Sequence record: OR896830.1 | DNA length: 64,000 bases | Source of the DNA: Escherichia phage LinBro | Reading direction: 5' to 3' (one strand) | Program-made: the position numbers and the translations under genes | The notes under the pieces: generated by a model | Seen by the model: only the letters and a program-made list of their open reading frames with translations | Databases searched by the model: none | What the model was told of the DNA's origin: nothing | Shown here: positions 60,898 to 62,376 of the stretch, in pieces | Layout of the letters: each line of letters begins with the position of its first letter | Position numbering within the stretch: position 1 is the stretch's first letter

Positions 60898-60975
60898 GGG
60901 AGATTGACGGTAATTGGTAAACCTATCTCGCTTAGAACGAGATGTTTGAGGGTTCGAATCCCTTGTCTCCTACCA
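60898..60975 (+). tRNA. tRNA with anticodon TAG (Leu by anticodon) but short variable arm
   Basis: Acceptor GGGAGAT/GTCTCCT, anticodon stem TCTCG/CGAGA, loop CTTAGAA, variable region only 5 nt. Confidence 0.5.
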
Positions 60976-60982
60976 AATTAAT

Positions 60983-61058
60983 GCAGGTGTAGCAAAATGG
61001 TTATGCGGCTGACTCTTAATCAGTAAGACGATGGGTTCAATTCCCTCCACCTGTACCA
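60983..61058 (+). tRNA. tRNA-Lys (anticodon CTT)
   Basis: Acceptor GCAGGTG/CACCTGT, loop CTCTTAA; body paralogous to the TTT Lys tRNA. Confidence 0.55.
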
Positions 61059-61064
61059 AACAAT

Positions 61065-61140
61065 GGGGTCATAGTTTATATGGTTAAAATTCGAGTTTTG
61101 CAAACTTGGGAACTGAGTTCAATTCTCAGTGACTCCACCA
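61065..61140 (+). tRNA. tRNA-Ala (anticodon TGC)
   Basis: Acceptor GGGGTCA/TGACTCC, loop TTTGCAA, T-arm CTGAG-TTCAATT-CTCAG. Confidence 0.65.
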
Positions 61141-61146
61141 ATTAGT

Positions 61147-61221
61147 GCATCCATAGTTTAAACGGGAAAATTACAGTCTTCCAAACTGAGGTTGAGGGTT
61201 CGATTCCCTCTGGATGCTCCA
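61147..61221 (+). tRNA. tRNA-Gly (anticodon TCC)
   Basis: Acceptor GCATCCA/TGGATGC perfect, loop CTTCCAA, T-arm GAGGG-TTCGATT-CCCTC. Confidence 0.7.
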
Positions 61222-61228
61222 AATTAAT

Positions 61229-61303
61229 GCTCCTATCGTATAATTGGCTATTACGGTTGCCTTGTAAGCAACTTATCAGGGTTCGAATCCTTGTGGGAGC
61301 ACC
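61229..61303 (+). tRNA. tRNA-Thr (anticodon TGT)
   Basis: Acceptor GCTCCTA/TGGGAGC, anticodon stem GTTGC/GCAAC, loop CTTGTAA. Confidence 0.7.
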
Positions 61304-61399
61304 AATTCAGAGGTCAAGTGAAAGACCGCTGGTGTCAACTGAAGACCGTAACAAATTCCACGGAGTTGAGTTAGCGGCACAACTTCAGACCTCTTTCAT

Positions 61400-61474
61400 A
61401 CTCGCTTAGTTTATATGGTAAAACATCACCCTTACAAGATGAAGAAAAAGGTTCAAGTCCTTTAGTGAGTACCA
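61400..61474 (+). tRNA. tRNA-Val (anticodon TAC)
   Basis: Acceptor ACTCGCT/AGTGAGT, D-stem GTTT/AAAC, loop CTTACAA, T-arm AAAGG-TTCAAGT-CCTTT. Confidence 0.6.
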
Positions 61475-61475
61475 T

Positions 61476-61553
61476 GTTCCAATATCCCAATTGGCAGAGG
61501 ATGCAAGCTCAAACCTTGTACTAGTGACGGTTCGAATCCGTCTTGGAACACCA
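61476..61553 (+). tRNA. tRNA with anticodon CAA (Leu by anticodon) but short variable arm
   Basis: Acceptor GTTCCAA/TTGGAAC perfect, anticodon stem GCAAG/CTTGT, loop CTCAAAC, T-arm GACGG-TTCGAAT-CCGTC. Confidence 0.55.
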
Positions 61554-61558
61554 ATTTT

Positions 61559-61634
61559 GCAGGATTAGTTCAAATGGATAGAGCAGCAGTCTACGAAGCT
61601 GTTAATAGGGGTTCGAATCCCTTATCCTGCGCCA
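61559..61634 (+). tRNA. tRNA-Arg (anticodon ACG)
   Basis: Acceptor GCAGGAT/ATCCTGC perfect, D-stem GTTC/GAGC, loop CTACGAA. Confidence 0.75.
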
Positions 61635-61653
61635 ATTTAAAGAGGCTATTTAA

Positions 61654-62211
61654 ATGAGATATTTGAAGTATGCTTCATGGATTTTCCTAGCTTTGTTAGA
61701 CCCATTGGCAGCAACCTTAGCAGTTATCTTAGCACCTTTTGTAGTTCCATTCTATAGTGAGAAGAAAGGGCATCTACCTTTTGGATTCAGATGGATGGAG
61801 ACATATGACAACCCTATTGATGGTGATGAAGGTCACATTAAAAGATGGGCTAAGATTAGAAAGATTGGCAAGCTCGGTGTTTATATGCAGAGAGTTGGAT
61901 GGCTCTGGAGAAACAAAGCTTATAACTTCTCTTACCATGTATTAGGAAGAGATGTAAAAGATGTTACTAAGTGGAAAGGTAATATCAACGTAAGTTCTGA
62001 CCCTGAAGATAATCAGACAGGTTATCTCCTAATGTGGAACAACAATGCTTGGGGATTATTCGCTTTTATTCCGTCAATTAAAATCTTTGGTAAACAGTTT
62101 TACTGGAGAATTTATGTTGGATGGAAACTAAAAAGTGTTGTCCCAGAAGAAAGAGCATTCTCAAGGGAAAGAGTTATGTTGGCATTCTTTATTCATCCAC
62201 TGAGAAAGTAA
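61654..62211 (+). CDS. hypothetical protein, hydrophobic N-terminus, Trp-rich
   Basis: 185-aa ORF with AAGAGG-type RBS embedded in the tRNA cluster. Confidence 0.45.
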   Translation: MRYLKYASWIFLALLDPLAATLAVILAPFVVPFYSEKKGHLPFGFRWMETYDNPIDGDEGHIKRWAKIRKIGKLGVYMQRVGWLWRNKAYNFSYHVLGRDVKDVTKWKGNINVSSDPEDNQTGYLLMWNNNAWGLFAFIPSIKIFGKQFYWRIYVGWKLKSVVPEERAFSRERVMLAFFIHPLRK

Positions 62212-62219
62212 AGATTTAA

Positions 62220-62295
62220 AGGGGATTAGTTTACAAGGTTAAAACCTCGGTCTTTGAAATCGAAGAAGTTGGTTCAATTCCAACATCCCCCGCCA
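62220..62295 (+). tRNA. tRNA-Gln (anticodon TTG)
   Basis: D-stem GTTT/AAAC, anticodon stem TCGGT/ATCGA, loop CTTTGAA, T-arm GTTGG-TTCAATT-CCAAC; position 1 A opposite C72. Confidence 0.6.
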
Positions 62296-62297
62296 AT

Positions 62298-62376
62298 GCT
62301 CCATTACTCCAATTGGCAGAGAGGCCAGACTTAAAATCTGTGTTATGTATCGGTTCGAATCCGATATGGAGTACCA
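62298..62376 (+). tRNA. tRNA with anticodon TAA (Leu by anticodon) but short variable arm
   Basis: Acceptor GCTCCAT/ATGGAGT, D-stem CTCC/GAGG, loop CTTAAAA, T-arm ATCGG-TTCGAAT-CCGAT. Confidence 0.5.

Follow-up and report, generated by a model that had tools for sequence, protein, structure and literature searches.

Leucine tRNA genes with short variable loops in the tRNA cluster of Escherichia phage LinBro: probable type I tRNALeu in an enterobacterial phage

Introduction

Leucine tRNAs (tRNALeu) count as class II when they carry a variable arm of more than 10 nucleotides (nt) with a stem-loop, and such a long arm is the normal condition in bacteria and phages. Short-armed counterparts, designated class I or type I, form a kind that is already known from mitochondria and from Streptomyces coelicolor, and that is mimicked by engineered, arm-less tRNALeu of E. 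coli; outside mitochondria they are treated as a rarity, both by textbooks and by the sole experimental paper on a bacterial type I tRNALeu. Here, three tRNA-Leu genes of this design, with the anticodons UAG, CAA and UAA, are described from a tRNA gene cluster of Escherichia phage LinBro; the DNA analyzed, referred to as the window, is a stretch of 64,000 nt from sequence record OR896830.1.

The human mitochondrial tRNALeu(UUR) resembles the phage tRNAs in its short variable loop, and its identity is set by A73 and A14 (PMC9976931). The mitochondrial type I tRNALeu are, however, floppy, reduced structures served by a dedicated mitochondrial leucyl-tRNA synthetase (LeuRS), whereas the D and T loops of the phage tRNAs are canonical. 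S. coelicolor has only one LeuRS (ScoLeuRS) and, alongside its type II tRNALeu, a type I tRNALeu(CAA) with a variable loop of 5 nt, which was shown to be leucylated; its loop must comprise 5 nt or more, among them nucleotide 48, which is a cytosine, and it is charged via the leucine-specific domain of ScoLeuRS, with A73 unused (PMC6614811). The phage tRNAs, which share the short loop, differ from it in possessing U48 together with A73, and they are predicted to have to work with an enterobacterial LeuRS. Closest to them in design are the minimalist variants of E. coli tRNALeu and those obtained by SELEX (systematic evolution of ligands by exponential enrichment), which have lost the arm but retain A73 and the D/T core, and which are reported to be still leucylated by E. 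coli LeuRS (EcLeuRS) (PMC9976931). Along the same lines, E. coli TrmL still methylates the VLAD mutant of E. coli tRNALeu(CAA), from which the whole arm has been deleted (PMC4615657). These are laboratory constructs, whereas the phage form is natural, conserved and widespread.

The determinants read by EcLeuRS comprise A73, the A15-U48 Levitt pair, G18G19, A20a and tertiary pairs that join the D loop to the T loop, whereas neither the anticodon nor the long arm is read, and arm-less variants stay active (PMC9976931); A14 has been added to this set in the introduction of the Streptomyces paper (PMC6614811). For the Aquifex system, deletion of the variable arm was found to lower mainly the affinity, whereas deletion of U48 abolished charging (PMC2377443).

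Architecture of the three genes

ARAGORN places tRNA-Leu(UAG) at 60898–60975 (78 nt), tRNA-Leu(CAA) at 61476–61553 (78 nt) and tRNA-Leu(UAA) at 62298–62376 (79 nt), all on the plus strand, all of class I, and with the CCA end included in the length. The general tRNA model of Rfam (RF00005, gathering score 29) recovers them with 44.5, 47.0 and 47.5 bits, respectively, at E values of 3e-7 to 4e-8. A first-pass annotation, made by reading the letters of the window, had noticed leucine anticodons at the same three start positions and variable regions of only 5–7 nt, with the reservation that its hand folding might be at fault. ARAGORN returns identical coordinates and anticodons, and neither ARAGORN nor Rfam gives a long arm, so that faulty folding is ruled out. 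The variable loops, by sequence and by the drawings that ARAGORN makes, are UGUUU (5 nt, UAG species), ACUAGU (6 nt, CAA species) and GUUAUGU (7 nt, UAA species), each devoid of a stem and each ending in U; an arm of class II dimensions is found in none of the three. Long arms are kept in the same cluster by two tRNASer (90 and 93 nt) and a tRNATyr (88 nt), just as the first-pass annotation had stated.

The drawings give 7 base pairs (bp) for the acceptor stem, 5 bp for the anticodon stem and 5 bp for the T stem of each tRNA. The anticodon loops, 7 nt in length, read CUUAGAA (UAG), CUCAAAC (CAA) and CUUAAAA (UAA), with C32, U33 and A37 in each, the 3' part of the last being A36A37A38; A73 followed by an encoded CCA forms the 3' end in every case. 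The earlier impression of well-paired stems and canonical loops was thus borne out by ARAGORN and Rfam, with minor blemishes: G1.U72 occurs in the UAG and UAA species and a C27.U43 mismatch in the UAA species, while all seven pairs of the tRNA-Leu(CAA) acceptor stem are perfect. The D arms of the CAA and UAA species, UCC-C-AAUUGGCAGA-GGA and CUC-C-AAUUGGCAGA-GAG, have a stem of 3 bp; that of tRNA-Leu(UAG), UGA-CGGU-AAUUGGUAA-ACCU, contains one additional U, and its stem is displaced by one register.

Minimum free energy folding of the single sequences produced a cloverleaf for two of the three genes, with weak z-scores of −1.4 to −1.6; this method is uninformative for tRNAs, and comparative evidence was used in its place. 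A signature pattern that combines the D arm and T loop with a leucine-type anticodon loop at class I spacing hits two sites in the window, against 0.00 expected from 100 shuffles, which excludes a chance origin.

Leucine identity marks on the tRNA bodies

Aligned with the E. coli K-12 genes leuW (UAG), leuX (CAA) and leuZ (UAA) from NC_000913, which have the same anticodons, all three phage tRNAs display U8:A14, A15/U48, G18G19, A20a and A73, and none of the published EcLeuRS determinants is missing from them. The E. coli D loop, AAUUGG(U/C)AGA, recurs in the phage tRNAs as AAUUGG(C/U)A(G/A)A, the register of G18G19 and A20a being unchanged; this sequence is absent from the other 23 tRNAs of the window. 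The CAA and UAA species also share with the E. coli tRNAs the 3-bp D stem and the unpaired positions 13 and 22; their loop reads A14A15U16U17G18G19C20A20aG21A22 and their T loop UUCGAAU. In tRNA-Leu(UAG) the loop motif AAUUGGUAA is of the same type, but the D stem is the displaced one. Even the G1.U72 of the UAG and UAA species has a counterpart in leuZ. On the other hand, the E. coli tRNAs have a variable stem-loop of 13–15 nt and genes of 85–87 nt, as opposed to the stemless 5–7 nt of the phage. Smaller differences concern position 20 (U in E. coli tRNALeu, C in the phage CAA and UAA species), positions 9 and 13 (A9 and C13 in these two species, G9 and G/A13 in E. coli) and position 37, which is A in the phage UAG species and G in its E. 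coli counterpart.

Marks of other isotypes were looked for as well. Pair 3:70 is G-C in the UAG species and U-A in the CAA and UAA species, in place of the G3:U70 of alanine tRNAs, and the long arm or the 8/4 or 9/3 acceptor/T stems of serine-type tRNAs and allo-tRNAs are absent, the stems being of 7 and 5 bp. The comparison of the bodies with other isotypes proposed in the first-pass annotation therefore speaks for leucine, by the E. coli alignment as well as by the 23 other tRNAs of the window. By the accepted rules of tRNA identity, only the leucine, serine and alanine systems of E. coli are independent of the anticodon, with serine identity requiring the long arm and alanine identity G3:U70. 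The leucine tRNAs of the related Shigella phage Sf14 were scored by other authors with the tRNAscan-SE isotype models, and leucine ranked highest for all three (67.4, 49.1 and 60.2) (PMC12482277); the Sf14 CAA and UAA genes are 97–99% identical to those of the window.

Conservation and frequency of short-armed tRNALeu

The region is 96–97% identical to Felix O1-like myoviruses (Felixounavirus), which infect E. coli and Salmonella; 371 phage records matched, and wherever these are annotated all three genes carry the label tRNA-Leu. The CAA gene is found at 95% identity or more in 247 phage records and the UAA gene at 99% or more in 215. In the more distant Erwinia phage Hena2, the orthologue of tRNA-Leu(CAA) has compensated changes in its acceptor, anticodon and T stems. 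tRNA-Leu(UAG) belongs to a T5-like subfamily characterized by U8 G9 and G13, and by sequence it comes closest (75.7% identity) to a tRNA-Leu(tag) of 77 nt that BF23 shares with other T5-like phages; Pectobacterium phage Wc4-1 and Salmonella phage FG1m have its D arm unchanged, next to a different anticodon stem.

BLAST searches with the single genes led to annotated tRNA-Leu of 74–78 nt in unrelated phages, including Ounavirinae of Erwinia and Pectobacterium, T5-like phages, Aeromonas phage AhSzw-1, Lactobacillus phage Bacchae and mycobacteriophages. IMG/VR was scanned with a pattern of D arm, class I spacing, T loop and an anticodon loop of leucine or phenylalanine type; at least 120 contigs of all sizes matched, and, although the phenylalanine anticodons GAA and AAA were permitted, 122 of 122 tRNAs among the matches listed had leucine anticodons. 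An alignment of 140 sequences with mutual identity below 85% was drawn from 200 tRNA-Leu of viral loci. U8, A14, A20a, U33, A35, U54, C56, A58 and A73 are invariant in it (140/140), A15, G18 and G19 occur in 139 and U48 in 138 sequences, 107 sequences have A37 and 32 have G37, and the most common length of the variable loop is 5 nt. Since A73 and U48 lie outside the search pattern, their invariance is independent evidence. The class I cloverleaf is paired in 98.1% of the cells, and both-side changes are seen in all 20 pairs; sliding the partners by 1–3 columns, as a control, reduced the paired share to 35–48%. Such pairing and covariation mark a tRNA family under strong structural selection, rather than debris.

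A covariance model built from these 140 sequences, the three window genes included, scores the UAA, CAA and UAG species at 79.4, 79.2 and 62.8 bits, and the best non-leucine tRNA of the window at 60.9 bits, which leaves a margin of about 18 bits for the CAA species. As an isotype classifier the model was dropped, as it is too generic after entropy weighting and does not separate tRNA-Leu(UAG).

The frequency of the short form was estimated from IMG/VR loci anchored on tRNAArg(UCU), a sample which is hence unselected for leucine. Variable loops of 5–6 nt were found in 24 of 62 viral tRNALeu, i.e. about 40%, while by gene length 1 of 43 tRNASer and 0 of 18 tRNATyr were short; gene lengths were used for the latter because the loop-length estimate by regular expression is sound for leucine and noisy for arginine, serine and tyrosine. 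Bacterial contigs, too, match the short-arm pattern (at least 120), and among the matches listed most are from Actinomycetota (Nocardia, Mycobacterium, Gordonia, Rhodococcus, Arthrobacter and others). Among these listed matches, the actinobacterial form is usually a solitary, highly conserved chromosomal tRNALeu(UAA) of 75–77 nt. A few of the bacterial matches reside in large tRNA arrays. The spread in Actinomycetota exceeds the single Streptomyces case in the literature, and the design is not phage-specific. In 5,426 E. coli genomes, blastn detected no sequence similar to the CAA gene, and literature searches found no description of class I or type I tRNALeu in phages.

The two forms of tRNALeu may occupy the same place. 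At one site, following tRNAAla, phage T5 carries a class II tRNALeu(UAG) of 85 nt (31624–31708), whereas BF23 (5997–6073) has a class I gene of 77 nt, a form also present there in many other T5-like phages; in Pectobacterium phage Wc4-1, a class I UAG gene stands beside a class II UAA gene of 87 nt. Class I and class II forms thus seem to be interchangeable in evolution. The class II tRNALeu(UAA) of Wc4-1 was considered as an arm-containing ancestor; this is not evident, as its D arm and stems differ from those of the Felix-type gene. Likewise, classical work on T5 and the amber-suppressor note in the T5 record had to be rejected as support: the T5 gene itself, at 85 nt, is class II, and the classical experiments are therefore irrelevant to the short form.

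Leucine codons of the phage

Codon usage was compared between 64 open reading frames (ORFs) of the window and 33 E. coli genes. As shares of all leucine codons, TTA accounts for 24.5% in the phage and 12.0% in E. coli, TTG for 15.2% and 12.9%, CTA for 10.5% and 4.3%, and CTG for 15.1% and 49.6%, respectively. The three anticodons fit under-served leucine codons. When phage NrdA and NrdB were aligned with the E. coli proteins, 47% of TTA (n = 17), 29% of TTG (n = 14) and 38% of CTA codons (n = 8) stood opposite leucine, against a background of 6.7% and compared with 41% for CTG, which has no dedicated phage tRNA. At these small numbers there is no sign of a non-leucine meaning for TTA, TTG or CTA in the two genes.

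Proposed function and alternative explanations

Judged from the sequences, the three genes probably represent functional phage leucine tRNAs of type I, which would be leucylated by the host LeuRS and decode leucine codons; most likely they specify ordinary leucine carriers rather than tRNAs of switched identity. This reading builds on observed features, namely the genes and their architecture, the identity determinants, the conservation and covariation of the family, and codon usage; from these we infer expression, leucylation by an enterobacterial LeuRS and use on the ribosome. In the proposed course of events, the three tRNAs would be transcribed along with the rest of the cluster. The LeuRS of E. 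coli or Salmonella would then leucylate them via A73 and the tertiary core, presumably by reading U8:A14, A15:U48, the position of G18G19, A20a and the contacts of the D loop with the T loop, with no need for the long arm. The UAA and CAA species would decode UUA and UUG, and the UAG species CUA and CUG, possibly all CUN codons; the codons so served would be those that the phage, at 39% GC, uses more than its host. It can be rationalized in this way that arm loss is possible in leucine tRNAs and not in those for serine or tyrosine, because for leucine alone the arm is not an identity element.

Several points weigh against this assignment. EcLeuRS failed to charge the S. coelicolor type I tRNALeu(CAA) and has been described as a type II-only enzyme (PMC6614811); the difference between C48 in that tRNA and U48 in the phage family may explain the failure. 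tRNA-Leu(UAG) has an irregular D arm and an A37, where bacterial tRNALeu reading CUN normally have G37 (m1G37), and it is barely separated from non-leucine tRNAs by the covariance model (62.8 versus 60.9 bits). tRNA-Leu(UAA) contains the C27.U43 mismatch. The conservation figures are partly biased, as 122 of the 200 tRNA-Leu in the source pool were retrieved by the D-arm pattern, and the test of codon meaning is small, with 17, 14 and 8 codons.

Class I length combined with a leucine anticodon is what identity switches look like at first sight, and the first-pass annotation had raised the possibility of identity-switched tRNAs, i.e. of bodies seen by another synthetase, such that UUA, UUG and CUA would receive an amino acid other than leucine. 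The observation behind it, leucine anticodons on class I bodies, stands; the switch itself, given the leucine D loop, A73 and U48, is very improbable. Precedents are mitochondrial, in the form of yeast mt-tRNAThr(UAG) and Ashbya mt-tRNAAla(UAG) (PMC7609411). These and the allo-tRNAs resemble the phage tRNAs in combining a leucine anticodon with a body other than that of class II leucine tRNAs, but they bear the marks of their new identity (G3:U70; a His-derived body with an 8-nt loop; 8/4 or 9/3 acceptor/T stems), whereas in the phage tRNAs the stems are 7/5, the loops measure 7 nt, and A73 and a leucine D arm are present. For the Leu(TAG) gene of Sf14, the tRNAscan-SE models Ile2 (65.7) and Lys (63.4) come near to Leu (67.4), yet Leu is the top model for this and the other two Sf14 genes (PMC12482277). 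Most other E. coli synthetases require their own anticodon (PMC9976931), and the two determinants that would serve independently of it, G3:U70 and the long arm, are both missing, as is any other isotype's mark. A73 is kept in every one of the 140 family members, and TTA, TTG and CTA stand opposite leucine in NrdA and NrdB as often as CTG does. Finally, host tRNALeu reads the same codons, so that a switch would result in proteome-wide ambiguity.

One might also regard the three genes as decayed, as pseudogenes of tRNALeu in which the arm was deleted and which fell out of use. The minor defects (C27.U43, G1.U72 and the displaced D stem of the UAG species) would suit such decay, as would Rfam scores that are the lowest among the class I-length tRNAs of the cluster, and the Felix O1 genome paper, which tabulates the cluster's tRNA genes, marks some members as 'pseudo'. 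Decay is nevertheless scarcely credible for genes that are held at 95–100% identity across hundreds of phage genomes and whose distant orthologues in Erwinia and Pectobacterium phages have compensated stem changes. The family as a whole is paired to 98%, with covariation in 20 of 20 pairs and invariant tertiary nucleotides; moreover, the CCA is encoded, and G1.U72 is present in E. coli leuZ too.

A further proposal, which overlaps with the assignment as type I leucine carriers and does not exclude it, is that the short arm, and perhaps the very presence of the tRNAs, is selected mainly for counter-defense: the tRNAs would stand in for host tRNALeu, or outlast it, once the tRNA pool is attacked by host toxins or nucleases that recognize the long variable arm or the anticodon loop of the host tRNAs. 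Phage tRNAs do rescue infection from tRNA-targeting defenses (PMC11464382, PMC11555353, PMC10264068), and the toxin MenT3, grouped by other papers with the abortive-infection toxin AbiEii in the DUF1814 family, anchors on the long variable loop of tRNASer; long-armed tRNALeu, however, are not its preferred targets (PMC11541572). The anticodon loop of the Sf14 Leu(UAG) is unlike the host's at three positions (PMC12482277), and about 40% of viral tRNALeu are short-armed. Against the proposal, tolerated arm loss together with genome economy accounts for the pattern equally well, chromosomes of Actinomycetota carry short-armed tRNALeu, and we know of no enterobacterial defense directed at the tRNALeu arm. 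A role in counter-defense is therefore rather unlikely, and the same degree of doubt attaches to the view that arm loss is adaptive in the sense of leaving the tRNA chargeable by LeuRS while hiding it from host factors by which the class II arm is recognized, for instance tRNA-directed toxins and defense nucleotidyltransferases.

The tRNA cluster and its surroundings

The cluster occupies 58665–63571 on the plus strand and, according to ARAGORN, comprises 26 tRNA genes for 19 amino acids, interspersed with small ORFs and small-RNA-like elements. CCA is encoded in nearly all of the tRNA genes and is followed by an A/T-rich spacer. Host-type identity marks also occur on other members, viz. G3.U70 (Ala), C73 (His) and U73 (Gly, Cys). 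Promoter-like sites with a perfect TTGACA lie at 58518, 58609 and 60006, the total number of such sites being not above chance, and a terminator-like hairpin is located at 63734–63751.

Tryptophan is the only amino acid without a tRNA gene among the 26 ARAGORN calls. A tRNATrp-like gene missed by the program is present at 60457–60540 on the plus strand, with a CCA anticodon in the loop CUCCAAA, A1-U72, G73, an encoded CCA end and a good T arm, but with a C31.A39 mismatch and a D-arm region about 7 nt longer than in the Hena2 (Erwinia phage) tRNATrp; it may be degenerate or unusual. Among the promoter-like sites of the region, the best (TTGACA-17-TATAGT, 60006–60034) precedes a gap of 200 nt between tRNAIle and tRNAArg (60035–60237, plus strand). 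This gap gives weak, sub-threshold Rfam matches to tmRNA, both standard and permuted, and may be the gene of a small stable RNA. Two ORFs within the cluster, both on the plus strand, belong to PHROG 2143 (61654–62211) and PHROG 2114 (62600–63397), families with no function known, the latter ORF showing weak similarity to tape-measure-like and 'GTP-binding domain' PHROG families.

Directly upstream of the cluster, the ORF at 57084–58499 (plus strand) encodes a protein of 471 amino acids with the Pfam domains DUF2828 and DUF7788, assigned to PHROG 850 ('RNA-binding protein'). A sequence search of the PDB gave no match. A fold search of the PDB with its AlphaFold model (pLDDT 88.4) returned as top matches only Ro60/TROVE proteins, matched over their full length, followed by vWA domains; the former include Xenopus Ro60, D. 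radiodurans Rsr and the Ro60 of Thermus phage phiLo, with E values of 3e-8 to 4e-6 and TM-scores of 0.48–0.65. By its predicted fold, the product is a Ro60-like protein, a phage orthologue of Ro60. Between the first tRNAs, four copies of a hairpin-closed element follow on the plus strand (58828–58912, 58995–59067, 59383–59468 and 59470–59613). The element reads CAGAAGACC...GGUCUGG, and the copies conform to the pattern nnnnCAGAAGACCnn..CAGCAA...nnGGTCTGGnnnn, each with an outer helix of 4 bp, a 3-nt bulge and a helix of 7–8 bp. The fourth copy encloses a permuted tRNA-like domain, in which a variable-type (V) hairpin is followed by a T arm (GAAGG-UUCGAUU-CCUUC), a 7-bp acceptor-like stem (AS) with an AGAU tetraloop and a D arm (GGUGU-AAUGGUA-GCAC). 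The order V-T-AS-D is the architecture of the bacterial YrlA Y RNAs, the partners of Ro60 (PMC4201824). Rfam gave no significant match for the elements between 58828 and 59613; they are conserved in three other Felixounavirus loci (L009, L070 and L106). By analogy, the ORF and the elements likely constitute a putative phage Ro60/Y-RNA module.

Farther away, an NrdD-like ORF of 399 amino acids (24605–25804, plus strand) contains an ATP cone and matches the Pfam NRDD profile, which has 562 positions, only over positions 1–246; this gene may be split or interrupted.

Significance

What is new about the three genes is their setting, in enterobacterial phages and in phages generally, and the unexpected frequency of the short form. 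The proposed LeuRS mechanism follows from known biology, and is a matter of specialist interest rather than astonishment. For annotation, the consequence is that phage 'tRNA-Leu' genes of 75–79 nt are not to be dismissed as pseudogenes or errors. If charged as predicted, the phage tRNAs would be ready substrates for studies of recognition and editing by LeuRS, and would provide engineering with compact Leu-tRNA scaffolds. They would also be natural proof that A73 and the tRNA core are all that an enterobacterial LeuRS needs. And should the adaptive view of arm loss, doubtful as it is, be true, the share of about 40% short-armed tRNALeu in viral contigs would be the mark of an arms race over the tRNA pool.

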